DNA of 32,000 nt from Microcystis aeruginosa NIES-843 (GTDB lineage Bacteria > Cyanobacteriota > Cyanobacteriia > Cyanobacteriales > Microcystaceae), in the NCBI RefSeq assembly GCF_000010625.1, contig NC_010296.1:420001-452000 (forward strand), given 5' to 3'. The notes beneath the pieces are model-generated. The model ran no database searches. It was not told the origin of the DNA and saw nothing but the letters and a program-made list of their open reading frames with translations. A program made the position numbers and the translations under genes. Shown in pieces: positions 1 to 30,683 of this stretch. Numbering within the stretch: the stretch's first letter is position 1; each line of letters begins with the position of its first letter.

Positions 1-106
1 TCTACTAATGACAGTAGCCTAGTTACTCAGGAGCCGGATACGGCGAAAGTCGTAAGTCCGGTTTTGAAGCAGGGGGTGGGAAGGCGACTTCCTGCTCTAC
101 TGTAAC
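1..106 (+). mobile_element. ORF-less group II intron, 3' fragment (domains V-VI), cut by window edge (copy 0)
   Basis: Identical to the last 106 nt of the four full copies. Domain V is GAGCCGGATACGGCGAAAGTCGTAAGTCCGGTTT at 31-64. The fragment ends ...CTACTGTAAC at 106, directly followed by the GGGTTTTACC part of MITE-A. Confidence 0.8.
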
Positions 107-1613: not shown

Positions 1614-1822
1614 ACGATCAACAAGAGTATAATAGAGTATAATTGTTATAGAATAAGCACTTTACGTTGAAAGAGCGGCGATGAAAGAGACAACCCCAGC
1701 TGCGATGCCTCCCTGCTTTGACCGATGGTGTCGGCGGTTTGACAATTGCTTCAAAAACGAAGCGCAAAAAAACGGCTTCAGACAATATTTAGGGTCTGCT
1801 GAAAAAGTTTTTCCTAGGGGCA

Positions 1823-1843
1823 GGGTGTAGGGTGTGGGGTGTG
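1823..1843 (+). repeat. GGGTGT[GA] heptamer tract (3 units), 5' exon of intron copy 1
   Basis: Direct reading gives GGGTGTA GGGTGTG GGGTGTG, immediately followed by GTGCG. Confidence 0.9.
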
Positions 1844-2628
1844 GTGCGATTCGTTGGCTAGAAACTAGACAGTAAGACGTTTAGAGGATTAGCCGCTTGG
1901 TAAATGTAGTACCTTGATAACTTTATAACCCTACAGGTGCGGGTTAGTAATAACCTTAGTCCTGTCCTCTAGATGCCTAGAGTGACGGCATTTCCTGCTG
2001 CTTTAGACTTGGTACATCTGAGGTAGTGAGCGAGGAAAAAAAAGCGGTATCTGATAGCCTAAATCAGAAACCCGTTGAGCCAGAACCTATGGATAGCCCT
2101 GGGGCGAAGATACGAATTAACCATCGTCAACACCCACGAGCCAAAAGGCTGACAGGCTCGAAACAAAAGTTAACAGAGTTGGGGCTGATAGCTCATACCA
2201 CTATCAGTAAGGCATTCCCGTTACTCTGTTGTGGACAGTATCATCCTAAGGGTTCAACCAATGGTTATAGGGAACGAAGTAACCCTGATTGACTCTGCCC
2301 GTTCGGGGCAGTAGGAAACCATCCGCAAGTCAATAGAGGGAGAGGATGTCCTTAAAAGCCAAGGCTTTGAGTAATATCAAAGATATGCTGACAAAGGACG
2401 GGTAACTAGGAAGTCTAAGCAACAATCAACGGTCATATACGCCCTAAAACCAACAATCTTGTCTGGTGGGGATACAGCCAAGAGGGTTGAATAGACAAGG
2501 AAATAATAATTCCCATTATTATTCTACTAATGACAGTAGCCTAGTTACTCAGGAGCCGGATACGGCGAAAGTCGTAAGTCCGGTTTTGAAGCAGGGGGTG
2601 GGAAGGCGACTTCCTGCTCTACTGTAAC
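1844..2628 (+). mobile_element. ORF-less group II intron copy 1 (785 nt)
   Basis: Has 5' GTGCG and 3' ...CTACTGTAAC. Domain V at 2553-2586 has a 9-bp stem with the AGC triad, an AA bulge, a 5-bp stem and a GAAA loop. Domain VI is a hairpin with a GCGA loop and an unpaired A 8 nt from the end. There is no RT ORF. Confidence 0.8.
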
Positions 2629-2728
2629 GGGTGTGGGGTGTGGGGTGTAGGGTGTAGGGTGTGGGGTGTAGGGTGTGGGGTGTGGGGTGTGGGGAAGTGG
2701 GGGTGTGGGGTGTAGGGTGTGGGGTGTG
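2629..2728 (+). repeat. GGGTGT[GA] heptamer tract (100 bp) between intron copies 1 and 2
   Basis: Direct reading shows about 14 units, including one irregular unit GGGGAAGTGGGG. Confidence 0.9.
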
Positions 2729-3268
2729 GTGCGATTCGTTGGCTAGAAACTAGACAGTAAGACGTTTAGAGGATTAGCCGCTTGGTAAATGTAGTACCTT
2801 GATAACTTTATAACCCTACAGGTGCGGGTTAGTAATAACCTTAGTCCTGTCCTCTAGATGCCTAGAGTGACGGCATTTCCTGCTGCTTTAGACTTGGTAC
2901 ATCTGAGGTAGTGAGCGAGGAAAAAAAAAAGCGGTATCTGATAGCCTAAATCAGAAACCCGTTGAGCCAGAACCTATGGATAGCCCTGGGGCGAAGATAC
3001 GAATTAACCATCGTCAACACCCACGAGCCAAAAGGCTGACAGGCTCGAAACAAAAGTTAACAGAGTTGGGGCTGATAGCTCATACCACTATCAGTAAGGC
3101 ATTCCCGTTACTCTGTTGTGGACAGTATCATCCTAAGGGTTCAACCAATGGTTATAGGGAACGAAGTAACCCTGATTGACTCTGCCCGTTCGGGGCAGTA
3201 GGAAACCATCCGCAAGTCAATAGAGGGAGAGGATGTCCTTAAAAGCCAAGGCTTTGAGTAATATCAAA

Positions 3269-5342
3269 CCCACATTCCGCACCCTAAGTGTCACAACGTC
3301 TCAAAAGAGGAAGGGGCGCGAGTCAAAATACTTATCTAGAGGAGTGAGTTGGCGGCAAGCTGCCGGCAACTAAGCCGAAAATTTCAGAGTTCCCCCGGTC
3401 ATTCTCAATAAACAGTGCTTGTTGAGAATGACTAGGCAATCAGACTTAACATCTAGGGGGAGATGTTCCAGTTGCTCGCTTTGTTTTGTCACCCCTTGAA
3501 GTCAATCCATCTGGTCAAGATAAGAGATAATATTCCTGGCAAGGTTTGGGAAAAAATCTCAAAATGTTGCGCCTCTCATCCGTTAAGTTGCTAATCTTTT
3601 GATTGTCTTGAATACGGACGAGATGAATCCCTTGAAAGCCCTGAAATATCCAGCGTAACGTCGGTCGGTCAGTTAACTTACCCAACGGATTTTTCAGTCC
3701 CGTCTCCTGCTGTTTTAAACTTAAACGAAGTTGTCTTTGACCAATAGTATAAACCAGCAGGCACAAGCCCATGAGCATGGCCATGACCTCGATTCTATGG
3801 GGAGATTTGAGAAAGACACTGTGGGCAAAAAAGCAGGGGTCTTTGAGAAAAGAAAATCCTCTTTCCGGAGCTTGTTGCCCTTTATATTTTTTGAGTATAT
3901 CCTCACTGCTTAATCGTTGTTTCTCCAAATCGTTAGTTGCTAAAACGAATCGTCCTGCTCGTTTCTTTAGCCTCTCAATGGCGGTCAAATTCAACTCTAA
4001 TTCGGCTTGAACTTGATAGCTTTGAGAGGGTAAATCGTCTTTTGATTTGAGTTTTGACCCCTGGGACTCAGGCGGAATGAGATTGACTTTAATCTCCGTT
4101 AACTGATGAGATTTTAAGGAGTCAGATAATCCTTTGGCTATCGCCAACGCCACCGCTCTATTCTCAAATTCTCTTCGGGATAGTTGCCGGATTTTTTCTT
4201 GGGCAGAATTCTTTTCCTGCTCGATTTTTTTCTCTAATTTTTTCAAGTCTGATTCTTGTCTAGCTTGACTTTCAACTAGCAACCATCTTTGTTCTATCCC
4301 CCCATAGTTAGAGATGGTTTCCCGCCAGGAATAACCCGGTATTTCTGAATCGGTTAACTCTTTTTCTGAGATGCTATCAACCAACTCTTGAGCCTCTTTA
4401 ATGCTTAATGGTACTCGAGACAACCAACGCATTTCTTTCATTAGTTTTAAATTCTCTTTGCTATAGAGGGCGCTATCGCCGACTATTAAACTGTCAAAGT
4501 CAACTTGTTTTTTAAATTCTCGGGCGATTTGACCAAAAACCGCTTTGTCCGCTTCATTTCCGTCCCCTACTTTCAGGAATAAAGGTACATCTCCATCCCC
4601 ACTTACGATTAAGTCAATCATAAATTGTTTTAAGTCAGGTCTTCGGTCGCGGGAGTATCCGTAGGTAATTTTTATTGGCTGTTGTCTGGTTTCAATTTCT
4701 TCTCCCACTGCTCCTGATTTCAGGATTTCTACTGTTGGGTATTCCTTGTTATATTCTCCTTCTACTGATAGAGAAGTCGAATCTAAATGGGAGTTCTCGG
4801 TTGCTACACCAAATTTTTTCACGGCCGCTAAACTAATCAGTAGGAAAATGACCGAAACATTAAGTTGATAAAGTTTGTCCATTACTCGACCAATTTTATC
4901 ATCATTCAGGTGTTTTGGTTCGATGCCCTCTCCCAGCAGATGTTCGGTTGCTTTATCTTCAAAAAATTGAGGAAATAAATACAAGGCTCGGGAGACAAAT
5001 CCCAATCCATTCAGGATAATTGCTTTCACGACTTGCCCAGCTGTGACAATTTCTCCTCGCTCAATTGAGACTTGTTCGTTGATAATTTCAACGATTCCTA
5101 TTTCATCGATAATTCCGGCTACTAATCCCAGATGGTCTAGATTTTTGACTTCAATTTCTGTTGATTGATTCATGGTCGAACAGTCCACTCGCCTCAGTTT
5201 TCCAACAATTCCTATTTTTTCATAATTAGGGGTCTCAAGACCCCCCTAGCGGCCACCGAGAAAACCTTCACCAGCTAGGTATTTTTACTCAAGTCTCTGG
5301 CGGGGGACAGCTTATGTGACAGTTGAGGGTGCGGAATGTGGG
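3269..5342 (-). mobile_element. IS1634-like element copy 1 (2074 bp)
   Basis: Termini are CCCACATTCCGCACCCT...AGGGTGCGGAATGTGGG. The 6-bp TSD ATCAAA lies at 3263-3268 and 5343-5348, and the uninterrupted target is visible in the other intron copies. Confidence 0.9.
3515..5188 (-). CDS. IS1634-family (IS4-related) DDE transposase
   Basis: 557-aa ORF with N-terminus ...NLDHLGLVAGIIDEIGIVEIINE, typical of IS1634-type transposases. Three near-identical copies are in the window. The likely true start is the internal MNQSTEIEV. Confidence 0.8.
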   Translation of the reverse strand: MDCSTMNQSTEIEVKNLDHLGLVAGIIDEIGIVEIINEQVSIERGEIVTAGQVVKAIILNGLGFVSRALYLFPQFFEDKATEHLLGEGIEPKHLNDDKIGRVMDKLYQLNVSVIFLLISLAAVKKFGVATENSHLDSTSLSVEGEYNKEYPTVEILKSGAVGEEIETRQQPIKITYGYSRDRRPDLKQFMIDLIVSGDGDVPLFLKVGDGNEADKAVFGQIAREFKKQVDFDSLIVGDSALYSKENLKLMKEMRWLSRVPLSIKEAQELVDSISEKELTDSEIPGYSWRETISNYGGIEQRWLLVESQARQESDLKKLEKKIEQEKNSAQEKIRQLSRREFENRAVALAIAKGLSDSLKSHQLTEIKVNLIPPESQGSKLKSKDDLPSQSYQVQAELELNLTAIERLKKRAGRFVLATNDLEKQRLSSEDILKKYKGQQAPERGFSFLKDPCFFAHSVFLKSPHRIEVMAMLMGLCLLVYTIGQRQLRLSLKQQETGLKNPLGKLTDRPTLRWIFQGFQGIHLVRIQDNQKISNLTDERRNILRFFPKPCQEYYLLS

Positions 5343-5595
5343 ATCAAAGATATGCTGACAAAGGACGGGTAACTAGGAAGTCTAAGCAACAATCAACGGT
5401 CATATACGCCCTAAAACCAACAATCTTGTCTGGTGGGGATACAGCCAAGAGGGTTGAATAGACAAGGAAATAATAATTCCCATTATTATTCTACTAATGA
5501 CAGTAGCCTAGTTACTCAGGAGCCGGATACGGCGAAAGTCGTAAGTCCGGTTTTGAAGCAGGGGGTGGGAAGGCGACTTCCTGCTCTACTGTAAC

Positions 5596-5653
5596 GGGTG
5601 TGGGGTGTGGGGTGTGGGGAAGTGGGGGTGTGGGGTGTAGGGTGTGGGGTGTG
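5596..5653 (+). repeat. GGGTGT[GA] heptamer tract (58 bp) between intron copies 2 and 3
   Basis: Matches the 3' 58 bp of the 2629-2728 tract, including the irregular GGGGAAGTGGGG unit. Confidence 0.85.
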
Positions 5654-6437
5654 GTGCGATTCGTTGGCTAGAAACTAGACAGTAAGACGTTTAGAGGATT
5701 AGCCGCTTGGTAAATGTAGTACCTTGATAACTTTATAACCCTACAGGTGCGGGTTAGTAATAACCTTAGTCCTGTCCTCTAGATGCCTAGAGTGACGGCA
5801 TTTCCTGCTGCTTTAGACTTGGTACATCTGAGGTAGTGAGCGAGGAAAAAAAGCGGTATCTGATAGCCTAAATCAGAAACCCGTTGAGCCAGAACCTATG
5901 GATAGCCCTGGGGCGAAGATACGAATTAACCATCGTCAACACCCACGAGCCAAAAGGCTGACAGGCTCGAAACAAAAGTTAACAGAGTTGGGGCTGATAG
6001 CTCATACCACTATCAGTAAGGCATTCCCGTTACTCTGTTGTGGACAGTATCATCCTAAGGGTTCAACCAATGGTTATAGGGAACGAAGTAACCCTGATTG
6101 ACTCTGCCCGTTCGGGGCAGTAGGAAACCATCCGCAAGTCAATAGAGGGAGAGGATGTCCTTAAAAGCCAAGGCTTTGAGTAATATCAAAGATATGCTGA
6201 CAAAGGACGGGTAACTAGGAAGTCTAAGCAACAATCAACGGTCATATACGCCCTAAAACCAACAATCTTGTCTGGTGGGGATACAGCCAAGAGGGTTGAA
6301 TAGACAAGGAAATAATAATTCCCATTATTATTCTACTAATGACAGTAGCCTAGTTACTCAGGAGCCGGATACGGCGAAAGTCGTAAGTCCGGTTTTGAAG
6401 CAGGGGGTGGGAAGGCGACTTCCTGCTCTACTGTAAC
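5654..6437 (+). mobile_element. ORF-less group II intron copy 3 (784 nt)
   Basis: Same sequence as copy 1 with an A7 tract. Its 3' end abuts the 5' GTGCG of copy 4 with no exon between them. Confidence 0.8.
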
Positions 6438-7222
6438 GTGCGATTCGTTGGCTAGAAACTAGACAGTAAGACGTTTAGAGGATTAGCCGCTTGGTAAATG
6501 TAGTACCTTGATAACTTTATAACCCTACAGGTGCGGGTTAGTAATAACCTTAGTCCTGTCCTCTAGATGCCTAGAGTGACGGCATTTCCTGCTGCTTTAG
6601 ACTTGGTACATCTGAGGTAGTGAGCGAGGAAAAAAAAGCGGTATCTGATAGCCTAAATCAGAAACCCGTTGAGCCAGAACCTATGGATAGCCCTGGGGCG
6701 AAGATACGAATTAACCATCGTCAACACCCACGAGCCAAAAGGCTGACAGGCTCGAAACAAAAGTTAACAGAGTTGGGGCTGATAGCTCATACCACTATCA
6801 GTAAGGCATTCCCGTTACTCTGTTGTGGACAGTATCATCCTAAGGGTTCAACCAATGGTTATAGGGAACGAAGTAACCCTGATTGACTCTGCCCGTTCGG
6901 GGCAGTAGGAAACCATCCGCAAGTCAATAGAGGGAGAGGATGTCCTTAAAAGCCAAGGCTTTGAGTAATATCAAAGATATGCTGACAAAGGACGGGTAAC
7001 TAGGAAGTCTAAGCAACAATCAACGGTCATATACGCCCTAAAACCAACAATCTTGTCTGGTGGGGATACAGCCAAGAGGGTTGAATAGACAAGGAAATAA
7101 TAATTCCCATTATTATTCTACTAATGACAGTAGCCTAGTTACTCAGGAGCCGGATACGGCGAAAGTCGTAAGTCCGGTTTTGAAGCAGGGGGTGGGAAGG
7201 CGACTTCCTGCTCTACTGTAAC
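6438..7222 (+). mobile_element. ORF-less group II intron copy 4 (785 nt)
   Basis: Same sequence as copy 1 with an A8 tract. It is followed by GGGTGTGGGGTTTTACC, the remainder of MITE-A. Confidence 0.8.
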
Positions 7223-8099
7223 GGGTGTGGGGTTTTACCGATTTTGAGGGGGTCAATTACCTAATTTTCAGGGAAAAAGTCCCGGAATTTACCCCTGATC
7301 ACTCCCATATCTGGTACTTTTTGAGGGGAAAAAAGTCCAAAAGTCTTATCCAACAAGGTTTTTAGATTTATTCAGCCAGCCCTATTTAGGAGGATTATTA
7401 GGGGAAAGTGAGAGGAAAAACCTCACTCAAATTGCCAATAATGCCGTCGGAGTAGTTTATAACCGATTACATCACTTTTTGACCGAATCTCCCTGGTCAG
7501 ACCGTCAGGTGAATGAATGTCGGTTGCAAGTGATGAACCAATGCCGCCAGACGCAAATCCCCCGAGGATTTTCCCTGATTGTCGATGACTCAGGACATCG
7601 AAAAAGTGGCAATCTGACCGCCGGAGTTGGCAGGCAGTACCTAGGAGAAATTGGCAAGACAGACAACGGAATAGTCGCCGTCACTACCCATCTCTACGAC
7701 GGCAAAAAAAGTGTCCCCCTAGACAGGGAAATTTATCAACCGGCTAGTTCCTTAGCCGAGGGGAAAGAAGACAAAGAATTTAAGAAGAAACCAGAGATAG
7801 CGATAGATTTAATTGACCGGAGCTTAACCAGAGGCTATCGACCGAAAATCGTCTTAATAGATGCTGGTTATGGCAACAACACAAATTTTCTCAAAGCCCT
7901 GGAAGAAAGAAAGCTAAAATACTTAGGAGGATTGGCAAAAAATCGAAAAGTAATTATTGAAAAAGAAGGGGGTGTGGAAGAAACAATCCAGCTTGAGCAA
8001 CTAGCAAAAAGCCTATCAGAAAAGGATTGGGAGAAAATCACCCTAAATCTAGATAAAGAAAAAACGGTTTGGGTAGCGGTATTCAGAGCGAAAATATCT

Positions 8100-8286
8100 G
8101 GTTCTTCGTTACTTGGTATGGTTCGATAGGGGGGCATAAATCGACTAAATCCTTATCTGGTAAGAGACTTAATTGATTAGTTCGCTCTATATCAAAAACA
8201 ATTGACAAAAATCGCTAAATGCCTTTCTATATAACGGTTCCATCCCTTATAACCCCCGTCCATTGCATAACACAAACCGAAGAGCC
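8100..8286 (+). mobile_element. MITE-B copy 2, inside the copy A transposase gene
   Basis: The 8-bp TSD AAATATCT lies at 8092-8099 and 8287-8294. The uninterrupted site is visible in copy B. Confidence 0.85.
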
Positions 8287-8552
8287 AAATATCTCAACTA
8301 GAAGGAGAAAGGAACTTGGCGATCGTCATGAATGCAAGTTCAATGGAAAAAGCCACAGAGGTGGACTATTTCATCACCAATGTAGTTGAGGCAGATACAG
8401 TAACAGCTTCGTGGATAGTGAGGACTTACACCGAAAGAAATTGGGTGGAAGTATTCTACCGAGAAGCCAAAGGATGGTTAGGGTTAAGGGAATATCAAGT
8501 CAGGGATAAACGAAGCTTACTTCGTCATTTTATCCTGGTGTTTTGTGCCTAT

Positions 8553-9915
8553 TGGGACTTAAACAAATTTCAAGCCCAAACAAAGCCTAAACTGGCTTTG
8601 TAAGCGGCAAACACATCCCGATTCTCGGTCAGCCACTCAAAGAAACGGAAAGACATCGCTGTCCGAAAAGCTTCCAAGGCTTCCACAAAAGTGTTTAAAG
8701 GTCGATTCGCCCACTGCCTTTGCAATCCCCCAGTTAACTTATGCCACAGGATAAATGTATAGGCACAAAACACCAGGATAAAATGACGAAGTAAGCTTCG
8801 TTTATCCCTGACTTGGTATTCCCTTAACCCTAACCATCCTTTGGCTTCTCGGTAGAATACTTCCACCCAATTTCTTTCGGTGTAAGTCTTGACTATCCAC
8901 GACGCTGTTACTGTATCTGCCTCAACTACATTGGTGATGAAATAGTCCACCTCTGTGGCTTTTTCCATTGAACTTGCATTCATGACGATCGCCAAGTTCC
9001 TTTCTCCTTCTAGTTGAGATATTTTCGCTCTGAATACCGCTACCCAAACCGTTTTTTCTTTATCTAGATTTAGGGTGATTTTCTCCCAATCCTTTTCTGA
9101 TAGGCTTTTTGCTAGTTGCTCAAGCTGGATTGTTTCTTCCACACCCCCTTCTTTTTCAATAATTACTTTTCGATTTTTTGCCAATCCTCCTAAGTATTTT
9201 AGCTTTCTTTCTTCCAGGGCTTTGAGAAAATTTGTGTTGTTGCCATAACCAGCATCTATTAAGACGATTTTCGGTCGATAGCCTCTGGTTAAGCTCCGGT
9301 CAATTAAATCTATCGCTATCTCCGGTTTCTTCTTAAATTCTTTGTCTTCTTTCCCCTCGGCTAAGGAACTAGCCGGTTGATAAATTTCAATGTCTAGGGG
9401 GACACTTTTTTTGCCGTCGTAGAGATGGGTAGTGACGGCGACTATTCCGTTGTCTGTCTTGCCAATTTCTCCTAGGTACTGCCTGCCAACTCCGGCGGTC
9501 AGATTGCCACTTTTTCGATGTCCTGAGTCATCGACAATCAGGGAAAATCCTCGGGGGATTTGCGTCTGGCGGCATTGGTTCATCACTTGCAACCGACATT
9601 CATTCACCTGACGGTCTGACCAGGGAGATTCGGTCAAAAAGTGATGTAATCGGTTATAAACTACTCCGACGGCATTATTGGCCATTTGAGTGAGGTTTTT
9701 CCGCTCACTTTCCCCTAATAATCCTCCTAAATATTGTCTGAAGCCGTTTTTTTGCGCTTCGTTTTTGAAGCAATTGTCAAACCGCCGACACCATCGGTCA
9801 AAGCATGGGGGCATCGCGGCTGGGGTTGTCTCTTTCATCGCTGATCTTTCAACGTAAAGTGCTTACTCTTTAACGATTATACTCGATTTGATCTTTATTT
9901 GGCGTTTAAGTCCCA
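8553..9915 (-). mobile_element. IS701-like element copy B (1363 bp, intact), inserted into copy A
   Basis: Termini are TGGGACTTAAAC/GTTTAAGTCCCA. The 4-bp TSD CTAT lies at 8549-8552 and 9916-9919, and the empty site GCCTATACATTT is visible within copy B itself. Confidence 0.85.
8570..9838 (-). CDS. IS701-family DDE transposase (intact, 422 aa)
   Basis: Uninterrupted ORF. Motifs FRQYLGGLL...RKN, HHFLTESPW and DDSGHRKSG...GVGRQYLGEIGK are typical of the IS701 group. Confidence 0.75.
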   Translation of the reverse strand: MKETTPAAMPPCFDRWCRRFDNCFKNEAQKNGFRQYLGGLLGESERKNLTQMANNAVGVVYNRLHHFLTESPWSDRQVNECRLQVMNQCRQTQIPRGFSLIVDDSGHRKSGNLTAGVGRQYLGEIGKTDNGIVAVTTHLYDGKKSVPLDIEIYQPASSLAEGKEDKEFKKKPEIAIDLIDRSLTRGYRPKIVLIDAGYGNNTNFLKALEERKLKYLGGLAKNRKVIIEKEGGVEETIQLEQLAKSLSEKDWEKITLNLDKEKTVWVAVFRAKISQLEGERNLAIVMNASSMEKATEVDYFITNVVEADTVTASWIVKTYTERNWVEVFYREAKGWLGLREYQVRDKRSLLRHFILVFCAYTFILWHKLTGGLQRQWANRPLNTFVEALEAFRTAMSFRFFEWLTENRDVFAAYKASLGFVWA

Positions 9916-11375
9916 CTATACATTTATCCTGTGGCATAAGTTAACTGGGGGATTGCAAAGGCAGTGGGCGAATCGACCTTTAAACACTTTTGTGGAAGCC
10001 TTGGAAGCTTTTCGGACAGCGATGTCTTTCCGTTTCTTTGAGTGGCTGACCGAGAATCGGGATGTGTTTGCCGCTTACAAAGCCAGTTTAGGCTTTGTTT
10101 GGGCTTGAAATTTGTTTAAGTCCCACTATAAAGACCGAAAGAGCCTCCTCGCTTACGTTAAAAAAGTGCTGGACAATTTTGGAGGCGAGTATGTAATTAA
10201 TTTTGCCTAGGTACTTAATACAGTGAGTTCTTTTCTTCTTCGGTGAATTCTAGGTTAATCATGTTTTCAATGAGTGCTTTGCTTCTAATTATGACTCTTA
10301 AACTATATTATTGCGCCAATTCAAAAATGAAACGCATCAACCTCAAGAGTTGACAAAGAAAGGCTCATCAGGTACTGTCTGATCATTAACAAAAACAAAT
10401 CAGACCCAAAATGAGCCACCAACATCTTAACATAGAACAAAGAAACTTGCTCTACCAACTTAGTCAGGAGGGAAATTTATCTCAACGGCAAATGGCCGTC
10501 TGGCTCGGATGTCATCAAAGCACAATATCACGGGAATTAAAAAGGAATCAAAGTTCCCTTGGCTGCTATCTACCTGACACAGCACAAGCTCAAAGCGAGA
10601 CAAGGCGAAAAAATGCCAAACAACCCTTTAAAAATGTCAGCGAGTCAGCCTTAGAGTTGGTCAAAGAAGGATTGAAAGATTATCATAGTCCCGAACAAAT
10701 AGCAGGTCGTCTGAAAAGAGCCAGTCAAGAATCTCTCAGTCACGAAACCATCTATCAAATGATCTATCAGAACTATCACGGATGTGGAGAGTACCAGAAA
10801 TATTTACGCCGGGGGCTTTGTCAAAGAAAGAGTCGAGGCGGAGCAAAAAGTAAGCGTGGAGGGATTCCAGGGCGTGTAGATATCAGCGAGCGACCAGTAA
10901 TTGCTGACCAGAAAACTGAAATCGGTCATTGGGAAAGTGACACAATGATTGGAGGCAATCATCTAGGAGTTCTCGTTACTCATGTAGATAAAGCCTCGAA
11001 ATTTTTAGGAGCAGGATTAGCCAAAAACAAAACCGCATCGGAAATCAATAGAGTCACAGAAAAACTTTTTCAAGAGATTCACCCTGACAAAAGAAAAACC
11101 TTTACTTGTGACAACGGCAAAGAATTTTGTGGACATCAAGAGTTGAGTCAGAAACTAGGAGCAGATTTTTATTTTGCTACTCCTTATCATTCGTGGGAGA
11201 GGGGATTAAACGAGCATACCAAGGGACTGTTAAGACAATTTTTCCCCAAGGGAACGAATTTTAAAATCGTTAAGCCAGAGGAGGTGGAAAGAGCCGTAAA
11301 CTTGATTAACAATCGTCCTCGAAAATGTCTTGACTATCGTACCCCGAATGAGGTATTCTATAAAGGTAGATCAGA

Positions 11376-16132: not shown

Positions 16133-16498
16133 TTTCTTGATTCCTCTTACCTTCTTTTTCTTGATACAGCTTTGCATCGGCACTGTCTTTTCCAGAAACA
16201 GTAACTTTACCAGAGTACAGATGATGTACCCAGTTAGTGGGACTTAGACAAAAAACAAATCGAGAAAAGCCTCAACTCCAATCCCCGCTTGGGATTTACT
16301 TCGAGAAGCCCAAAATCGCTGAAACCCAGATATATCAAGGAAAATCATAAATCGAGGTTAACCCTTTGTCCCGTAATGGTTTGAGCCTTTTTTGCTGACC
16401 GAAAACGCCTAAGTCCCATTAGTGTGACTTCCCTTGCCAGGTTTTTGAATAAATGCTGCTTTGCGTAGCATTTGTTTTAACTCGCTAACTTTTTTAAC
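16119..16498 (-). pseudogene. hicA: HicA-like toxin gene split by MITE-C
   Basis: Removing 16238-16418 plus one TTAG gives ...KKVSELKQMLRKAAFIQKPGKGSHTNWVHHLYSGKVTVSGKDSADAK..., matching the HicA GSH and VTV.GK pattern. The stop overlaps the hicB start. The start codon is unclear (GTT after a stop). Confidence 0.5.
16238..16418 (-). mobile_element. MITE-C copy 1 (181 bp, IS701-like termini)
   Basis: TIR is TGGGACTTAG...CTAAGTCCCA. The 4-bp TSD TTAG lies at 16234-16237 and 16419-16422. It is the inverted counterpart of 31029-31209. Confidence 0.85.
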
Positions 16499-17135: not shown

Positions 17136-17138
17136 TTG

Positions 17139-17324
17139 GGTTCTTCGTTACTTGGTATGGTTCAATAGGGGGGCATAAATCGACTAAATCCTTATCTGGC
17201 AAGAGACTTAATTGATTAGTTCGCTCTAGATCGAAAACAATTGACATAAATCCCCGAATGTCTTTCTATATAAGAGTTTCATTCCTTGTAACCCTGTCCG
17301 TTGCATAAGACAAACCGAAGAACC
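17139..17324 (+). mobile_element. MITE-B copy 3
   Basis: The 8-bp TSD GTTAATTG lies at 17131-17138 and 17325-17332. The TSD includes the stop codon of the PEP-CTERM gene. Confidence 0.85.
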
Positions 17325-17380: not shown

Positions 17381-17988
17381 TCAAAAAAACTGTAAGTTAG
17401 GATAGGCTAAAATTGCATTATCTTCAGTAGCCACTACTAAATTATGCTGTAAAGCTTGACAGATTAAAAGACGGTCAAAAGGATCTTTATGAAGGAGTGG
17501 TAAATCTTTTAAATGTACTAGGCTTTTTTCATCAATAACTAAACTGTTAATTAAATGCTGTTTTCTTTTTTTGGGAAGATATAGGTCAGGACGCTCAGGA
17601 AAATTTAATTTGCCTAACTGATACTTAATAACGCACTCCCAAACAGAGACTACACTCAAAAAAACTTCGTTATTGCTATTTTTTATCTGACGGCATATTT
17701 TTTCAGACAAGCGCGGATGATCACTAATTAGGGTTTGCTGAAAAAATTTTTCCTGGGGACAGGGTGTGGGGTGTAGGGTGTAGGGTGTAGGGTTTTACCC
17801 ATTTTCAGGGGGTCAATTACCTAATTTTCAGGGAAAAAGTGCCTAAATTTTCCCCCCCCGATCACCCCAATGTCTGGCACTTTTTGATGGGAAAAAAGTC
17901 TAAAAGTCTTACCCAACAAGGTTTTAAGATTTATTGAGCAAACACTAATTAACCAAAGAAAAATGTGTGTATCTAGTAACAATCTCAT
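17381..17988 (-). pseudogene. vapC: PIN-domain VapC toxin gene disrupted by MITE-A
   Basis: Removing 17731-17945 plus one TAATTA restores MRLLLDTHIFLWLISDHPRLSEKICRQ...VWECVIKYQLGKL. The ATG at 17988 overlaps the upstream antitoxin stop as ATGA. Confidence 0.8.
17731..17945 (+). mobile_element. MITE-A, intron-free reference copy (215 bp)
   Basis: Ends are GGGTTTGCTGAA...TTGAGCAAACAC. The 6-bp TSD TAATTA lies at 17725-17730 and 17946-17951. It contains 4 heptamer units at about 17762-17789. Confidence 0.8.
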
Positions 17989-20180: not shown

Positions 20181-20398
20181 TTTTAGAAAAGTTCGCTTAA
20201 AGGTAGATTCAGTCAGGATTTTTTGAGTTAATTAATTCTAGACGATATTCTCGCTCGATCGGTTCATCTCAATTATTAAGCTTTTCTCGCCCCTAGCTCC
20301 TTACTCTGGGGCTATAACTCTAGTCTATCAAAAGACCCCTGCCGTTTGTTCTGGGAGAGGAGTTAGGGCAATTAACCATCGCTGCCATTACTTGAGAA

Positions 20399-22471
20399 CC
20401 CACATTCCGCACCCTAAGTGTCACAACGTCTCAAAAGAGGAAGGGGCGTGAGTCAAAATACTTATCTAGAGGAGTGAGTTGGCGGCAAGCTGCCGGCAAC
20501 TAAGCCGAAAATTTCAGAGTTCCCCCGGTCATTCTCAATAAACAGTGCTTGTTGAGAATGACTAGGCAATCAGACTTAACATCTAGGGGGAGATGTTCCA
20601 GTTGCTCGCTTTGTTTTGTCACCCCTTGAAGTCAATCCATCTGGTCAAGATAAGAGATAATATTCCTGGCAAGGTTTGGGGAAAAATCTCAAAATGTTGC
20701 GCCTCTCATCCGTTAAGTTGCTAATCTTTTGATTGTCTTGAATACGGACGAGATGAATCCCTTGAAAGCCCTGAAATATCCAGCGTAACGTCGGTCGGTC
20801 AGTTAACTTACCCAACGGATTTTTCAGTCCCGTCTCCTGCTGTTTTAAACTTAAACGAAGTTGTCTTTGACCAATAGTATAAACCAGCAGGCACAAGCCC
20901 ATGAGCATGGCCATGACCTCGATTCTATGGGGAGATTTGAGAAAGACACTGTGGGCAAAAAAGCAGGGGTCTTTGAGAAAAGAAAATCCTCTTTCCGGAG
21001 CTTGTTGCCCTTTATATTTTTTGAGTATATCCTCACTGCTTAATCGTTGTTTCTCCAAATCGTTAGTTGCTAAAACGAATCGTCCTGCTCGTTTCTTTAG
21101 CCTCTCAATGGCGGTCAAATTCAACTCTAATTCGGCTTGAACTTGATAGCTTTGAGAGGGTAAATCGTCTTTTGATTTGAGTTTTGACCCCTGGGACTCA
21201 GGCGGAATGAGATTGACTTTAATCTCCGTTAACTGATGAGATTTTAAGGAGTCAGATAATCCTTTGGCTATCGCCAACGCCACCGCTCTATTCTCAAATT
21301 CTCTTCGGGATAGTTGCCGGATTTTTTCTTGGGCAGAATTCTTTTCCTGCTCGATTTTTTTCTCTAATTTTTTCAAGTCTGATTCTTGTCTAGCTTGACT
21401 TTCAACTAGCAACCATCTTTGTTCTATCCCCCCATAGTTAGAGCTTGTTTCCCGCCAGGAATAACCCGGTATTTCTGAATCGGTTAACTCTTTTTCTGAG
21501 ATGCTATCGACTAACTCTTGAGCCTCTTTAATGCTTAATGGTACTCGAGACAACCAACGCATTTCTTTCATTAGTTTTAAATTCTCTTTGCTATAGAGGG
21601 CGCTATCGCCGACTATTAAACTGTCAAAGTCAACTTGTTTTTTAAATTCTCGGGCGATTTGACCAAAAACCGCTTTGTCCGCTTCATTTCCGTCCCATAC
21701 TTTCAGGAATAAAGGTACATCTCCATCCCCACTTACGATTAAGTCAATCATAAATTGTTTTAAGTCAGGTCTTCGGTCGCGGGAGTATCCGTAGGTAATT
21801 TTTATTGGCTGTTGTCTGGTTTCAATTTCTTCTCCCACTGCTCCTGATTTCAGGATTTCTACTGTTGGGTATTCCTTTTTATATTCTCCTTCTACTGATA
21901 GAGAAGTCGAATCTAAATGGGAGTTCTCGGTTGCTACACCAAATTTTTTCACGGCGGCTAAACTGATGAGTAGGAAAATGACCGAAACATTAAGTTGATA
22001 AAGTTTGTCCATTACTCGACCAATTTTATCATCATTCAAGTGCTTGGGTTCGATGCCCTCTCCCAGCAGATGTTCGGTTGCTTTATCTTCAAAAAATTGA
22101 GGAAATAAATACAAGGCTCGGGAGACAAATCCCAATCCATTCAGGATAATTGCTTTCACTACTTGCCCCGCTGTGACAATTTCTCCTCGCTCAATTGAGA
22201 CTTGTTCGTTGATAATTTCAACGATTCCTATTTCATCGATAATTCCGGCTACTAATCCCAGATGGTCTAGATTTTTGACTTCAATTTCTGTTGATTGATT
22301 CATGGTCGAACAGCCCACTGCCTAAGTTTTCCAACAATTCCTATTTTTTCATAATTAGGGGTCTCAAGCTCCCCCTAACGGCCACCGAGAAAACCTTCAC
22401 CAGATAAGTATTTTTACTCAAGTCTCTGGCGGGGGACAGCTTATGTGACAGTTGAGGGTGCGGAATGTGGG
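20399..22471 (-). mobile_element. IS1634-like element copy 2 (2073 bp), no matching TSD
   Basis: Same termini as copy 1, but the flanks TGAGAA and CTCCAA differ. The left flank is a truncated MITE-X-like end and the right flank is a truncated transposase gene. Confidence 0.85.
20645..22318 (-). CDS. IS1634-family DDE transposase (most diverged copy)
   Basis: 557 aa with about 4 substitutions relative to copies 1 and 3, for example KVWDGNEAD versus KVGDGNEAD. Confidence 0.75.
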   Translation of the reverse strand: MGCSTMNQSTEIEVKNLDHLGLVAGIIDEIGIVEIINEQVSIERGEIVTAGQVVKAIILNGLGFVSRALYLFPQFFEDKATEHLLGEGIEPKHLNDDKIGRVMDKLYQLNVSVIFLLISLAAVKKFGVATENSHLDSTSLSVEGEYKKEYPTVEILKSGAVGEEIETRQQPIKITYGYSRDRRPDLKQFMIDLIVSGDGDVPLFLKVWDGNEADKAVFGQIAREFKKQVDFDSLIVGDSALYSKENLKLMKEMRWLSRVPLSIKEAQELVDSISEKELTDSEIPGYSWRETSSNYGGIEQRWLLVESQARQESDLKKLEKKIEQEKNSAQEKIRQLSRREFENRAVALAIAKGLSDSLKSHQLTEIKVNLIPPESQGSKLKSKDDLPSQSYQVQAELELNLTAIERLKKRAGRFVLATNDLEKQRLSSEDILKKYKGQQAPERGFSFLKDPCFFAHSVFLKSPHRIEVMAMLMGLCLLVYTIGQRQLRLSLKQQETGLKNPLGKLTDRPTLRWIFQGFQGIHLVRIQDNQKISNLTDERRNILRFFPKPCQEYYLLS

Positions 22472-22751
22472 CTCCAAATAAATAGAATTGTCTAGAAACG
22501 GGGGGAGGAATAGTAGCCGAAACGACTGATAATAAGCTATCAACTGCTTTTTGATAATTGTCATTTGTTGGACTTGGTAAAAACTCTTGAATCCCTTTAT
22601 ATAAACTGTTATAATCTCGACGAAATAAAGGGTTCAAAGATAATTCGGCAACTGTTGAAGCTTGTCGATTCGACGAGAGGGAATCCAGCAATTCCATGAC
22701 CGTCTCGCGTCTCGAACCAAGGGCGTTATAGAGTTGCCTTCTCCACTTCAA
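22472..22751 (-). pseudogene. N-terminal fragment of another DDE transposase, truncated by IS1634-like copy 2
   Basis: MKWRRQLYNALGSRRETVMELLDSLSS...LSLNPLFRRDYNSLYKGI resembles IS4/IS701-type N-termini. The ORF tail beyond 22472 is IS sequence. Confidence 0.5.
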
Positions 22752-22787: not shown

Positions 22788-23911
22788 GGGAGCATCTCAC
22801 TTATGCAATGAGTATTAATGCTTATAGCCGTCAACAACTAGAAAATCTTCAACTTGATCACAAAGAGAAATGAGATTATAATAGTTATAGCTTACAATTC
22901 AGAATATGGCTCGATAGGAGGAATAATTCAATGTTATCAGAAAATGAAAAAAGAATTAAAGAGTTATGTCAAGAGTTAGGGCAATGTCTCTATGAGCAAT
23001 CCCCAATTAAGAAATTTAATAACTTGGGAGAGATAGAGGAGACAGTCAGAGATTTAATGATTCATTATGTCAACCCAGAAATCGGTATTTTTTTGTCAAA
23101 ACAAGCACAGAAGAAACCGCCGGTCGGACGAGAAAAGTGAAAAGTATTTTGGGGGAATTACCAATTACAGAAAAACAAGCGAAGAAGTTAGAAGTAAAGC
23201 CTCGGACTCAGATGAGTCCAATGTTAGAGAAGAACTGTTTGTTATTAAGTGGCGATGAATCCTACGAGAAATCGGCGCAGAAAATCAAATCATTGACAGG
23301 GATTGCTGTTTCTCACAGTACCCAACAACGCCTCGTGCATCGCTATGCTTTTGAAGAATTACCGTCTAACCCAGAAGTCGAAGTGGAAGAAATGAGCATA
23401 GATGGCGGTAAGGTACGACTAAGAACTGCCAAGGGAAAAGCCTTGATTTGGCGTGATTATAAAGCAGTGAGTTTTCATCAACTGGGGGTAGCGGCCTTTT
23501 TTCAAAATAACTCGGCTTTATTAGATTTGGTTAATTCTCAAGTTTTGGCTGAACCTTTAATTTGTTTAGGAGATGGACATGATGGTATCTGGAATTTATT
23601 TGGTCAGATAGGAGAGAAACAGGAAAGAATTGAAATATTGGATTGGTATCATTTAATCGAAAACCTCTATAAAGTTGGCGGGTCATTCCAGCGGATTGAT
23701 GAGGTAAAATGTTTTCTATGGAAGGGGGAAGTGGATGCTGCTATCTCCTGTTTTGAGGGATGGTCAGAGCCGCAAGTGGAGAATTTTATTATTTATTTGA
23801 ACAAGCATAAACATCGAATTGTCAATTATGGTTATTTGCAGGCAGAGGGCATTTCGATTGGCTCTGGCTCTGTTGAATCAAAAATTAAACAAATTGCTCA
23901 TCGTCTTAAAA
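22788..23911 (+). mobile_element. ISKra4-like element, left part only (truncated or interrupted at 23911)
   Basis: The left end GGGAGCATCTCACTTATGCAATGAG matches the MITE-E terminus. No matching right end was found after 27060. Confidence 0.6.
22931..23911 (+). pseudogene. ISKra4-family transposase, frameshifted and 3'-truncated
   Basis: Two overlapping ORFs (22931-23140 and 23137 onward) differ by a -1 frame. The second frame is already open upstream (..ETAGRTRKVKSILGEL). The sequence DGGKVRLR...LGDGHDGIWN...ILDWYHLIENLYK is ISKra4-like. The ORF is cut by IS1634-like copy 3 at 23912. Confidence 0.6.
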
Positions 23912-24065
23912 CCCACATTCCGCACCCTCAACTGTCACATAAGCTGTCCCCCGCCAGAGACTTGAGTAAAAATACCTAGCTGGTGAAGGTTTTCTCGGTG
24001 GCCGCTAGGGGGGTCTTGAGACCCCTAATTATGAAAAAATAGGAATTGTTGGAAAACTGAGGCGA

Positions 24066-25739
24066 GTGGACTGTTCGACCATGAATCAATCAACAGAAAT
24101 TGAAGTCAAAAATCTAGACCATCTGGGATTAGTAGCCGGAATTATCGATGAAATAGGAATCGTTGAAATTATCAACGAACAAGTCTCAATTGAGCGAGGA
24201 GAAATTGTCACAGCTGGGCAAGTCGTGAAAGCAATTATCCTGAATGGATTGGGATTTGTCTCCCGAGCCTTGTATTTATTTCCTCAATTTTTTGAAGATA
24301 AAGCAACCGAACATCTGCTGGGAGAGGGCATCGAACCAAAACACCTGAATGATGATAAAATTGGTCGAGTAATGGACAAACTTTATCAACTTAATGTTTC
24401 GGTCATTTTCCTACTGATTAGTTTAGCGGCCGTGAAAAAATTTGGTGTAGCAACCGAGAACTCCCATTTAGATTCGACTTCTCTATCAGTAGAAGGAGAA
24501 TATAACAAGGAATACCCAACAGTAGAAATCCTGAAATCAGGAGCAGTGGGAGAAGAAATTGAAACCAGACAACAGCCAATAAAAATTACCTACGGATACT
24601 CCCGCGACCGAAGACCTGACTTAAAACAATTTATGATTGACTTAATCGTAAGTGGGGATGGAGATGTACCTTTATTCCTGAAAGTAGGGGACGGAAATGA
24701 AGCGGACAAAGCGGTTTTTGGTCAAATCGCCCGAGAATTTAAAAAACAAGTTGACTTTGACAGTTTAATAGTCGGCGATAGCGCCCTCTATAGCAAAGAG
24801 AATTTAAAACTAATGAAAGAAATGCGTTGGTTGTCTCGAGTACCATTAAGCATTAAAGAGGCTCAAGAGTTGGTTGATAGCATCTCAGAAAAAGAGTTAA
24901 CCGATTCAGAAATACCGGGTTATTCCTGGCGGGAAACCATCTCTAACTATGGGGGGATAGAACAAAGATGGTTGCTAGTTGAAAGTCAAGCTAGACAAGA
25001 ATCAGACTTGAAAAAATTAGAGAAAAAAATCGAGCAAGAAAAGAATTCTGCCCAAGAAAAAATCCGGCAACTATCCCGAAGAGAATTTGAGAATAGAGCG
25101 GTGGCGTTGGCGATAGCCAAAGGATTATCTGACTCCTTAAAATCTCATCAGTTAACGGAGATTAAAGTCAATCTCATTCCGCCTGAGTCTCAGCAGTCAA
25201 AACTCAAATCAAAAGACGATTTGCCCTCTCAAAGCTATCAAGTTCAAGCCGAATTAGAGTTGAATTTGACCGCCATTGAGAGGCTAAAGAAACGAGCAGG
25301 ACGATTCGTTTTAGCAACTAACGATTTGGAGAAACAACGATTAAGCAGTGAGGATATACTCAAAAAATATAAAGGGCAACAAGCTCCGGAAAGAGGATTT
25401 TCTTTTCTCAAAGACCCCTGCTTTTTTGCCCACAGTGTCTTTCTCAAATCTCCCCATAGAATCGAGGTCATGGCCATGCTCATGGGCTTGTGCCTGCTGG
25501 TTTATACTATTGGTCAAAGACAACTTCGTTTAAGTTTAAAACAGCAGGAGACGGGACTGAAAAATCCGTTGGGTAAGTTAACTGACCGACCGACGTTACG
25601 CTGGATATTTCAGGGCTTTCAAGGGATTCATCTCGTCCGTATTCAAGACAATCAAAAGATTAGCAACTTAACGGATGAGAGGCGCAACATTTTGAGATTT
25701 TTCCCCAAACCTTGCCAGGAATATTATCTCTTATCTTGA
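24066..25739 (+). CDS. IS1634-family DDE transposase
   Basis: 557 aa, one substitution relative to copy 1. Confidence 0.8.
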   Translation: MDCSTMNQSTEIEVKNLDHLGLVAGIIDEIGIVEIINEQVSIERGEIVTAGQVVKAIILNGLGFVSRALYLFPQFFEDKATEHLLGEGIEPKHLNDDKIGRVMDKLYQLNVSVIFLLISLAAVKKFGVATENSHLDSTSLSVEGEYNKEYPTVEILKSGAVGEEIETRQQPIKITYGYSRDRRPDLKQFMIDLIVSGDGDVPLFLKVGDGNEADKAVFGQIAREFKKQVDFDSLIVGDSALYSKENLKLMKEMRWLSRVPLSIKEAQELVDSISEKELTDSEIPGYSWRETISNYGGIEQRWLLVESQARQESDLKKLEKKIEQEKNSAQEKIRQLSRREFENRAVALAIAKGLSDSLKSHQLTEIKVNLIPPESQQSKLKSKDDLPSQSYQVQAELELNLTAIERLKKRAGRFVLATNDLEKQRLSSEDILKKYKGQQAPERGFSFLKDPCFFAHSVFLKSPHRIEVMAMLMGLCLLVYTIGQRQLRLSLKQQETGLKNPLGKLTDRPTLRWIFQGFQGIHLVRIQDNQKISNLTDERRNILRFFPKPCQEYYLLS

Positions 25740-26126
25740 CCAGATGGATTGACTTCAAGGGGTGACAAAACAAAGCGAGCAACTGGAACATCTCCCCCTA
25801 GATGTTAAGTCTGATTGCCTAGTCATTCTCAACAAGCACTGTTTATTGAGAATGACCGGGGGAACTCTGAAATTTTCGGCTTAGTTGCCGGCAGCTTGCC
25901 GCCAACTCACTCCTCTAGATAAGTATTTTGACTCGCGCCCCTTCCTCTTTTGAGACGTTGTGACACTTATACCATTTTTCCTTATTCGTGGCAGGCATCA
26001 TAGTCCCCTCTCCCACCCTGACAGGTGTAGGTTTATTACAAAGAGGTGAGCAGTCACACACTCATGGCGAGAAAATCAAGCTAGAGATTTAGAGGAGCAT
26101 AGCGAAAGACAATGCTAAACAACAAA

Positions 26127-29328: not shown

Positions 29329-29748
29329 ATGGAGATAGCGATCGTGTCTAAATTAAAATACGGTGTTTATTTTCTACCCTACAATCCCGATTTAGTCCCT
29401 AGAGCCAAGGAAATGCGAAAAAATCCCACACCGACAGAAAAAAAGTTATGGGCTTTTCTCCGACAATTTCCCTTAAAAATGTGGCGACAGCGACCGATCG
29501 ATCATTTTATCGTTGATTTCTATTGTCCGAAGTTGAAATTAGTGATCGAGGTGGATGGGGAGGTTCATCTTACTCCGGAGGCAATGGCTTATGATGCTAG
29601 AAGAACGAAGGTTTTAGAGGGATACGGATTAACGGTGATCCGTTTCACCAATGATGAGGTTAAATACGATTTCGAGGCGGTTTGTGAGAAAATATCGGGG
29701 TTTATTTCTTCGCTTCCTGTCTGTACGGAGCTTGGTGATCCCCCCTAG
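29329..29748 (+). CDS. DUF559 (Vsr-like endonuclease fold) protein
   Basis: AGGAG precedes the ATG. The sequence MRKNPTPTEKKLWAFLR...WRQRPIDHFIVDFYCPKLKLVIEVDGEVH...RTKVLEGYGLTVIRFTNDEV is the DUF559 signature. Confidence 0.8.
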   Translation: MEIAIVSKLKYGVYFLPYNPDLVPRAKEMRKNPTPTEKKLWAFLRQFPLKMWRQRPIDHFIVDFYCPKLKLVIEVDGEVHLTPEAMAYDARRTKVLEGYGLTVIRFTNDEVKYDFEAVCEKISGFISSLPVCTELGDPP

Positions 29749-29880
29749 CCCCCCTTTTCAAGGCTATCCCCCCTAGCCCCCCTTTTCAAGGCTATCCCCC
29801 CTAGCCCCCCTTTTCAAGGCTATCCCCCCTAGCCCCCCTTTTCAAGGCTATCCCCCCTAGCCCCCCTTTTCAAGGGGGGA
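29739..29880 (+). repeat. 28-bp tandem repeat (4 perfect units plus 1 variant), TCCCCCCTAGCCCCCCTTTTCAAGGCTA
   Basis: Direct reading. The last unit ends CCCCCCTTTTCAAGGGGGGA, and an inverted partner CCCCCTTGAAAAGGGGGATTTAGGGGGA lies at about 29947-29975. The DUF559 stop codon lies in unit 1. Confidence 0.9.
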
Positions 29881-30496
29881 ACCGGAATCGGAATCGGAGC
29901 GCGGTAGGGGTGCTGGTGGTGAGACGGGCGCTATGGCTGCGTAAGTCCCCCTTGAAAAGGGGGATTTAGGGGGATAAAAAGTCCCGCTTCCCACCAGTGA
30001 TTCCCGATGCTTCTCAATTGATCGCATAAATATAAGGAACCCTCACGAATATGAAATGGCAACGAATAGTATTCTCACAACTGTATTTAGAACCTTCAAG
30101 AAATGGAATATATAAATCACAAGAAAATCATGGCACTGGTATTAAAATTATAAATATGGGTGAGTTATTCGGATATGATTTTATTGCGGATCAGCCGATG
30201 AAACGTATTTCAATGACCGATTCAGAGATCGATAGATTTTGTTTACAAAATGGCGATCTACTATTCGGGCGAAGATCTTTAGTAGAATCTGGTGCTGGTA
30301 AATGCTCACTTATCGATAATATGATCGAGAAAACCACCTTTGAATCATCGATTATTCGGGTTAGGCTAGATCCTAATTTGGCATTACCTAAATTTTATTA
30401 TTACTGGTTTAAATCTTTAAGAGGAAGTGGTGCTATACGAGCTATAGTAACAGGAACTAATGTCAAAGGGATTAAGGGAAGCGACTTAAAAAATAT

Positions 30497-30683
30497 GGCT
30501 CTTCGGTAATTGTTATGCAATGGACGGGGGTTATAAGGGATGGAACCCTTATATAGAAAGGCGTTTAGCGATTTTTGTCAATTGTTTTTGATCTAAAGCG
30601 AACTCATCAATTAAGTCTTTTGCCAGATAAGGATTTAGTCAATTTATGCCCCCCTATCGAACCATACCAAGTAACGAAGAGCC
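30497..30683 (-). mobile_element. MITE-B copy 4 (inverted), in hsdS
   Basis: The 8-bp TSD AAAAATAT lies at 30489-30496 and 30684-30691. Confidence 0.85.

Follow-up and report, generated by a model that had tools for sequence, protein, structure and literature searches.

Tandem copies of a putative non-autonomous group II intron in a heptanucleotide repeat of Microcystis aeruginosa NIES-843

Several bacterial group II introns, RmInt1 in ISRm2011-2 among them, home into insertion sequences (IS) or transposase genes. Class C (IIC) introns use terminators and attC sites, where a DNA stem-loop is recognised with a short exon-binding site 1 (EBS1) and no EBS2. In Thermosynechococcus elongatus, introns without an open reading frame (ORF) proliferate with a trans-acting helper reverse transcriptase (RT) (Mohr, Ghanem and Lambowitz 2010, PMC2882425), and Arthrospira carries 79 ORF-less intron copies (PMC2853384). 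ORF-less introns and a twintron occur in dnaN of Trichodesmium erythraeum (PMC4649490; Meng et al. 2005, as cited in PMC12584367). The Escherichia coli IIB1 intron EcKTE56.groEL integrates in tandem by using a G of the resident intron as intron-binding site 3 (IBS3), which gives a junction ending in .../GTGCG (a slash marks an intron junction throughout), and its delta-ORF form does so more often (Mob DNA 2025, PMC12584367). Here we analysed 32,000 nt of Microcystis aeruginosa NIES-843 (NC_010296.1, 420,001-452,000), hereafter the window, with coordinates counted from its start. It contains four near-identical copies of a 784-787 nt unit, all in direct orientation, in a tract of GGGTGTR heptamers within a MITE (miniature inverted-repeat transposable element). 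With a probability of about 0.85, the unit is an ORF-less IIB chloroplast-like (CL) group II intron, a non-autonomous retroelement that homes on GGGTGTR heptamers, and the array formed by retrohoming and recombination.

A sequence-only reading of this DNA had found the arrangement unassignable to any described case. That view was not sustained, as the arrangement matches ORF-less proliferation (PMC2882425) together with tandem integration (PMC12584367). Like TeI3 of T. elongatus, the unit is cyanobacterial and probably of IIB type, has lost its ORF, exists in many near-identical copies and would use an RT in trans. However, TeI3 keeps N- and C-terminal ORF remnants and close RT-bearing siblings (TeI4), neither of which was found for the Microcystis unit, and the TeI3 families diverged to many targets whereas the Microcystis unit keeps a single repeated target. 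With EcKTE56.groEL it shares an exact head-to-tail junction and, we propose, the entry of a second copy between the 5' exon and the resident intron. In E. coli, the events were seen on over-expression, at one site (the stop codon of groEL), and rely on a U-G wobble at EBS3; the Microcystis junction is natural, and its resident intron begins with the same base, G, that normally stands at +1. The T. erythraeum dnaN introns are likewise several related ORF-less introns lying close together with the maturase encoded elsewhere, but they sit in an essential gene, nested or separated by coding exons, whereas the Microcystis introns lie in non-coding repeats and apparently have no host function.

As for RmInt1 in ISRm2011-2 and for the tnpB intron described below, the homing site is inside a mobile element and hence multi-copy. 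The RmInt1-type target is a unique sequence in the IS, while that of the Microcystis unit is a microsatellite that is also found outside the MITE. Class C introns resemble the unit in using a recurrent non-coding motif as a dispersed landing pad; unlike them, the unit has ordinary EBS1 and EBS2 pairing. A full-text literature search returned no account of this Microcystis element or of any microsatellite-targeted group II intron. ORF-less proliferation with a helper RT, tandem integration and homing into mobile elements are already known, and the new parts are the heptamer microsatellite read by both EBS1 and EBS2, the natural head-to-tail array and the apparent lack of a cognate RT.

Structure and target site of the intron unit

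All copies are on the + strand. Copy 1 lies at 1844-2628 (785 nt), copy 3 at 5654-6437 (784 nt) and copy 4 at 6438-7222 (785 nt), the last head-to-tail with copy 3. Copy 2 spans 2729-5595 and is interrupted, with its 5' part at 2729-3268 and its 3' part at 5349-5595. Copies 1 and 4 are identical across 785 nt, and the sole difference among the four is the A-tract in GCGAGG(A)nGCGG, which reads A8, A10, A7 and A8 in copies 1 to 4; relative to copies 1 and 4, copy 3 has one A fewer and copy 2 two more. A 3' fragment comprising the end of domain IV and domains V and VI occupies 1-106 (+), where it is clipped by the window edge, and is 100% identical to 2523-2628. The repeat coordinates of the sequence-only reading proved exact, and its point that copies differing in one A-tract must be recent holds as well.

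The group II assignment made from the letters was borne out by Rfam. RF00029 (Intron_gpII, domains V and VI; gathering cut-off 40 bits) matched with 55 bits at five 3' ends, namely 29-106, 2551-2628, 5518-5595, 6360-6437 and 7145-7222. A permissive scan added matches to a plastid domain V model and a partial D1D4-2 match at 1990-2057, and domain V of the unit also fits the plastid ndhA and ndhB intron models. Every copy begins with GTGCG and ends with CTACTGTAAC, in agreement with the GUGYG and AY consensus. The tandem junction fixes these boundaries, as do some 40 junction sequences in total, all with the same ends; deviating ends would have counted against an intron.

Domain V of copy 1 (2553-2586, +; 34 nt) carries the AGC triad, a 2-nt bulge and a GAAA loop. 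It was recognised by RF00029 and the plastid domain V model, and in the minimum free energy (MFE) fold it forms a 10-bp stem, an AA bulge, a 5-bp stem and the GAAA loop. In the same fold, domain VI is a hairpin capped by a GCGA loop. Its bulged A, at position 2621 (+) and thus 8 nt before the intron ends, is also seen in the RF00029 alignment and is the candidate branch point. Both domains had been proposed at these positions from the sequence. Domain IV is 151 nt long in the fold (nt 557-707) and closed by an 11-bp stem. The unit contains UAUGG and CCUAAG, which together would make the 11-nt receptor at which the GAAA loop should dock.

For domains I-III (nt 1-557), a full-length alignment was obtained with six group II introns of cyanobacteria: five with an intact RT gene (from a Fremyella plasmid, a Gloeothece plasmid, Microcystis NIES-2549 and two metagenomic sources) and one, from a Nostoc plasmid, whose RT gene is decayed. 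RNAalifold placed 103 consensus pairs in the alignment of domains I-III, and 60 of the 103 keep pairing through two-sided (compensatory) changes in at least one sequence. From these structure models, we predict that the unit is a group II intron RNA that is complete in structure and lacks an ORF. An ORF survey of the unit returned no RT-type ORF, as had been stated before. Gene callers report a spurious 88-aa ORF inside it, and no intron is annotated there.

The target was derived from the exon junctions in the window and at outside loci. All 17 junctions between a heptamer exon and the intron 5' end read GGGTGT-R-GGGTGT-R/, with G at position -1 in 14 and A in three, and all 22 genuine 3' exons start with GG. 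We assigned candidate EBS1 to CAUACC (2194-2199 in copy 1, +; intron nt 351-356), which is predicted to pair with GGUGUG at -6 to -1; in the MFE fold it is part of the 9-nt loop that caps a hairpin of domain I. Comparison supports the hairpin: its stem co-varies among the aligned introns while the loop differs, and the homologous loop GAUAGA of the RT-bearing Microcystis intron is a perfect complement of the end of its own exon, UCUAUC. Two other EBS1 candidates, UACAUC(U) at nt 170 and UACGCC(C) at nt 595, were rejected, as they are not in the conserved domain I hairpin that bears EBS1 in the relatives. Candidate EBS2 is ACACCC (2130-2135 in copy 1, +; intron nt 287-292), found by complement search and fold; it would pair with GGGUGU at -14 to -9, and GGGTGT occupies these positions at all 17 junctions with a heptamer upstream. 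Upstream of copy 1, the tract at 1823-1843 (+) consists of three units, GGGTGTA GGGTGTG GGGTGTG, and supplies IBS2 and IBS1.

The DNA target would therefore be two successive heptamer units followed by the 3' exon, 5'-GGGTGT-R-GGGTGT-R / GG. As both guides read the repeat unit, each array offers several sites in register, and four copies can share one tract because both guide sequences pair with the heptamer repeat. The tract in the window contains 13 matches to GGGTGTRGGGTGTG, with none expected by chance; three are occupied and ten are not. The claim that every insertion lies at a heptamer boundary stands for three out of four junctions on the 5' side and as many on the 3' side, which abut GGGTGTG; at the remaining one, 6437/6438, intron meets intron. 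The heptamer tract in the MITE had also been proposed as a multi-copy homing site. It is multi-copy and matches EBS1 and EBS2, but the target is a GGGTGTR array anywhere. Sites at array edges carry a heptamer on one side only, for example GGGTGTG/intron/GGGAGATTAAAT. The GGGTGTG there is therefore not a 7-bp target duplication, and a cut-and-paste DNA transposon is excluded.

Distribution and the source of the reverse transcriptase

Copies of the intron were found at more than 20 different sites with 98.6-100% identity, most of them identical, in one orientation and with no target duplication; some 25 of the junctions come from Microcystis assemblies and metagenomes other than the window. Among the GTDB representative genomes, the exact domain V 33-mer occurred only in one Microcystis aeruginosa metagenome-assembled genome, at nine ORF-less contig ends, a pattern characteristic of repeats at which short-read assemblies break. 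The exact 5' 27-mer matched seven loci in JGI metagenomes. Two full-length metagenome copies are 99.7% and 98.6% identical to the unit, and two other metagenome loci (L014 and L015) hold truncated or interrupted copies. The spurious 88-aa ORF was called as a gene on seven further contigs, each with the full 785 nt at 99.7-100% identity. Housekeeping genes, for example metK, uvrD, tatC and those of response regulators, flank several of the insertion sites.

Beside a response-regulator gene, the same 3' flank (GGGAGATTAAATAAAAGC...) was found with three or more different 5' flanks in different samples (L013, L032, L033, L034), reflecting either ectopic recombination between introns or chimeric short-read contigs. 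Downstream of the G-rich heptamer arrays (L005, L008, L013, L029 and others) there is often another array of heptamers, of the TAACTGA or CTGATCA type. According to PMC4853749, which cites MacGregor 2015, this repeat family is known from Beggiatoaceae and some cyanobacteria.

No RT is encoded within the window. NIES-843 carries seven group II intron RTs, six of which are near-identical and have an HNH domain (PMC8934634). Searching from the Fremyella RT through the Gloeothece RT to the Microcystis RTs (P0158 and P0160, whose intron is in tnpB), we recovered a full-length Microcystis intron from three genomes. It is about 2.37 kb long, encodes a 586-aa RVT_N-RT-GIIM-HNH protein and is inserted at the start of an IS605 tnpB gene (exon ...AAGTACAGAATCTATC/). 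In all three genomes (L021, L022 and L023) it lies at about 2456-4820, after ten codons (MLKAFKYRIY) of a Cas12f-like tnpB; this intron therefore homes into TnpB genes. The nearest RNA relatives of the unit, the Fremyella (L011) and Microcystis (L021) introns, encode proteins with RVT_N, RVT_1, GIIM and HNH, that is, CL-type RT-X-D-En. The RT proteins of Fremyella and Microcystis are 59% identical to each other, and the intron of the Fremyella and Tolypothrix plasmids is 77% identical to the unit in the first 88 nt. The candidate for the helper RT of the ORF-less unit is the 586-aa RT-X-HNH protein. The En-less RTs P0123 and P0124 were set aside, as they are not close either.

A related intron of 1129 nt on plasmid pn1 of Nostoc sp. 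UHCC 0926 (L010, 3501-4629) has an internally deleted RT gene, of which remnants of aa 44-308 and 577-607 are left. It stands for ORF loss at an intermediate step, within the lineage nearest to the ORF-less intron of Microcystis.

Several observations weigh against the assignment of the unit to a heptamer-homing group II intron mobilised in trans. A closely related RT-bearing sibling was not found among the GTDB representatives, where the domain V 33-mer gave only the contig ends mentioned above, among the seven JGI metagenome loci, in IMG/VR (no match to the domain V 33-mer) or by blastn against plasmids, which gave only short 75-87% matches in Nostocales. Identity to the unit over domains I-III is about 59% for the nearest relative found, on the Fremyella and Tolypothrix plasmids, and no more than about 55% for the RT-bearing intron of Microcystis. 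For the upstream domains, the sequence-only reading had pointed to covariance models and folding: domains I-III align and co-fold with RT-bearing introns, and the D1D4-2 match by itself is partial and, at 26.7 bits, under the 36-bit cut-off. The A at position -1 in three of the 17 5' junctions makes a C-A mismatch with the proposed EBS1, EBS2 was assigned solely from complementarity and alignment position, and EBS3, which in IIB introns pairs with IBS3 in the coordination loop where IIA introns have delta-delta', was not located in the fold of the unit, though the +1 base is G at every site. Metagenome contigs that cross the 785-nt repeat may be chimeric, which makes the pairing of 5' and 3' flanks unreliable; 5' and 3' junctions were therefore counted separately. 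Finally, tblastn with five RT proteins revealed no RT remnant in domain IV. The sole weak match arose because domain V nucleotides are conserved and the Fremyella ORF overlaps domain V. With neither an RT ORF nor a remnant, the unit can therefore be only a non-autonomous mobile intron.

A close RT-bearing sibling may exist in genomes beyond those scanned. We tentatively suggest, as one possible history, that the unit belongs to an orphan ORF-less lineage specialised on a heptanucleotide microsatellite, which a distant RT residing in tnpB (about 55% RNA identity) mobilises and whose arrays are expanded by recombination. If true, this would be a natural bacterial case of intron proliferation uncoupled from the cognate RT.

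Formation of the array and the role of the carrier element

The carrier MITE extends from 1792 to 7382 (+). Spacer 1 (2629-2728, +; 100 nt) follows copy 1 and consists of 14 heptamer-like units including an irregular GGGGAAGTG. Spacer 2 (5596-5653, +; 58 nt, 8 units), after copy 2, matches the final 58 nt of spacer 1 without a difference, irregular unit included. Part of the array therefore probably arose by segmental duplication of spacer plus intron, and from these sequences we infer a mixture of retrohoming and DNA-level duplication. The tract comprises 26 units here and about four each in an empty MITE and in a MITE copy with one intron (L016).

Alternatively, four separate retrohoming events may have struck a long pre-existing microsatellite, with no DNA-level duplication. 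Every exon 5' junction is a perfect target, the ten further perfect sites left unoccupied in the tract make targets plentiful, the A-tract lengths vary among copies as independent reverse transcription would give, and GGGGAAGT units are found in other arrays too. Set against this are the exact match of spacer 2 to the end of spacer 1, with its irregular unit, and the contrast between about four units in the empty MITE and L016 and 26 in this array. We consider separate events unlikely as the whole history of the array.

Copies 3 and 4 are joined without an intervening base at 6437/6438 (...CTACTGTAAC/GTGCGATT...). By analogy with the E. coli events (PMC12584367), copy 3 probably entered between the heptamer exon and a copy 4 that was in place before it. 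An occupied site can be entered again, since the pairing upstream stays as it was and the resident intron starts with G, which is also the usual base at +1. The reverse order, with copy 4 entering after copy 3, would require CUGUAAC to pair with EBS1, which it does not.

The same junction could stem from RT template switching, from the intron 5' end to another 3' end, or from copying of a circular RNA. Group II intron RTs are known to switch templates end to end, and the junction is exact, with no base gained or lost. However, integration at an occupied site needs nothing new while the +1 base stays G, copy 3 (A7) differs from copy 4 (A8), and the occupied-site route was demonstrated directly with an identical junction signature (PMC12584367). 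We regard template switching or circular-RNA copying as quite unlikely.

In the preferred scheme of retrohoming plus recombination, the intron RNA would reverse-splice into the G-rich strand of the heptamer array, and an RT/maturase acting in trans, with the 586-aa protein as candidate, would have to copy the inserted RNA. The array would have begun with retrohoming into the tract of a pre-existing MITE copy. Unequal recombination between intron copies would then have duplicated spacer and intron, and microsatellite slippage may have altered the spacers. One retrohoming event into an occupied site would have produced the exon-less junction 6437/6438, and the insertion of an IS1634-like element would have disabled copy 2.

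The MITE family is short and non-coding, with imperfect terminal inverted repeats (GGGT(C/T)TGCTGAA... / ...TTCAGC(N)4CCC), and has three copies in the window and seven or more elsewhere. The left arm of the carrier (1792-1822, +), with the terminal inverted repeat GGGTCTGCTGAA..., recurs in L016 and, in similar form, at 17731-17947. Copy 4 is followed by one heptamer unit and the right arm (7223-7382, +), and then by TATTTA, a flanking direct repeat that measures 6 bp, or as much as 8 bp with the adjoining GG. The intron-free copy (17731-17947, +) is flanked by TAATTA, and its tract, GGGTGTG (GGGTGTA)x3, is without a full IBS2 plus IBS1 site. In the third copy, the right arm (107-262, +) is joined to the 3' intron fragment after GGG, without a full heptamer, and is 79-90% identical to 7223-7384 and 17790-17951. 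This agrees with the earlier placement of the fragment in a second copy of the MITE.

The sequence-only reading had suggested that the intron hitch-hikes on the MITE, and spread chiefly as a passenger moved by a DNA transposase would fit the right arm of the family in seven of 18 outside 3' exons and at both window sites. However, introns of about 100% identity sit between MITE arms that are only 79-90% alike, so the introns entered MITEs that had already diverged. The intron also sits at different tract registers among MITE copies, with zero, one or two units downstream. A MITE-like left arm was found in only three of 14 outside 5' exons, and most 5' junctions are in non-MITE arrays beside housekeeping genes. 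These comparisons make passenger spread very unlikely; they suggest that the MITE is a landing pad and not a vehicle, and co-transposition is not supported. As for the array itself, near-identical 785-nt repeats are hard to assemble and short-read assemblies break here, but a collapsed or expanded repeat as the source of the four copies is scarcely credible given the IS in copy 2, the spacers of 100, 58 and 0 nt and the A7, A8 and A10 tracts.

Surrounding elements and implications

The carrier MITE splits the transposase gene of an IS701-like element (copy A). The left part of this element is at 1600-1791 (+; 90% identical to 9919-9726), with the transposase starting at 1681, and the element continues at 7389; deleting the MITE and one TATTTA restores the transposase frame (DDE_5, 7e-43). 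The IS701-like homology begins at 1600, within an ORF for a PIN-domain toxin (1251-1613, +; Pfam PIN, 3e-11, profile positions 2-101 of 120). The C-terminus of the toxin is replaced, because its last 14 nt and stop codon fall inside the IS701-like sequence. The nesting of intron, MITE, transposase gene and toxin gene described earlier was thereby confirmed.

The element that interrupts copy 2 is an IS1634-like IS of 2074 bp (3269-5342, -) in domain III. It ends in perfect inverted repeats of 17 bp, has duplicated the 6-bp target ATCAAA (3263-3268 and 5343-5348) and encodes a 557-aa transposase (3515-5188, -; Pfam DUF4277 and DDE_Tnp_1). Two further copies of it lie in the window at 20397-22477 and 23904-25969.

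A 187-nt element occurs four times with 86-100% identity (616-802, 8100-8289, 17138-17324 and 30496-30683). Its short ORF (MPFYITVPSLITPVHCITQTEE) closely resembles that of the ISL3-type 187-nt MITE of Microcystis PCC 7806 (PMC11448079), and one of its copies additionally splits the IS701-like transposase gene that already holds the intron-bearing MITE. A second IS701-like copy (8759-9919, -) is flanked by a 213-nt inverted repeat (8550-8762 and 9916-10128, 99.5% identical), and the first IS701-like copy ends exactly at the start of the left repeat. The arrangement represents either an IS within a palindromic element or a rearrangement between IS copies. Another 188-nt sequence is present twice in opposite orientation with 98.9% identity (16235-16422 and 31025-31212) and may be another MITE family.

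Between 10411 and 14521, three transposase genes lie in a row: IS30-like (HTH_38 and rve), IS5-like (DDE_Tnp_4) and one with a weak DDE_Tnp_1 match. Two ORFs about 110 nt apart, 27147-28025 (N-terminal domain and the first half of N6_Mtase) and 28133-29293 (the second half), make up hsdM, a type I restriction methylase gene that is probably interrupted or frameshifted. A perfect 28-nt tandem repeat of 4.9 copies (ATCCCCCCTAGCCCCCCTTTTCAAGGCT) follows downstream of the methylase genes at 29738-29875. Nested mobile elements are densely packed throughout the window.

For work on Microcystis, the practical consequence is that a 785-nt repeat of about 100% identity breaks short-read assemblies. The apparent lack of a close RT-bearing sibling poses the question of how promiscuous its helper RT may be. 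The simple repeat as natural target makes copy number, register and array growth readable straight from genomes, and the locus offers a natural instance of head-to-tail tandem integration, until now available only from an E. coli over-expression assay. ORF-less introns that multiply on a borrowed RT are the standard model for the way in which spliceosomal-type introns may have spread.

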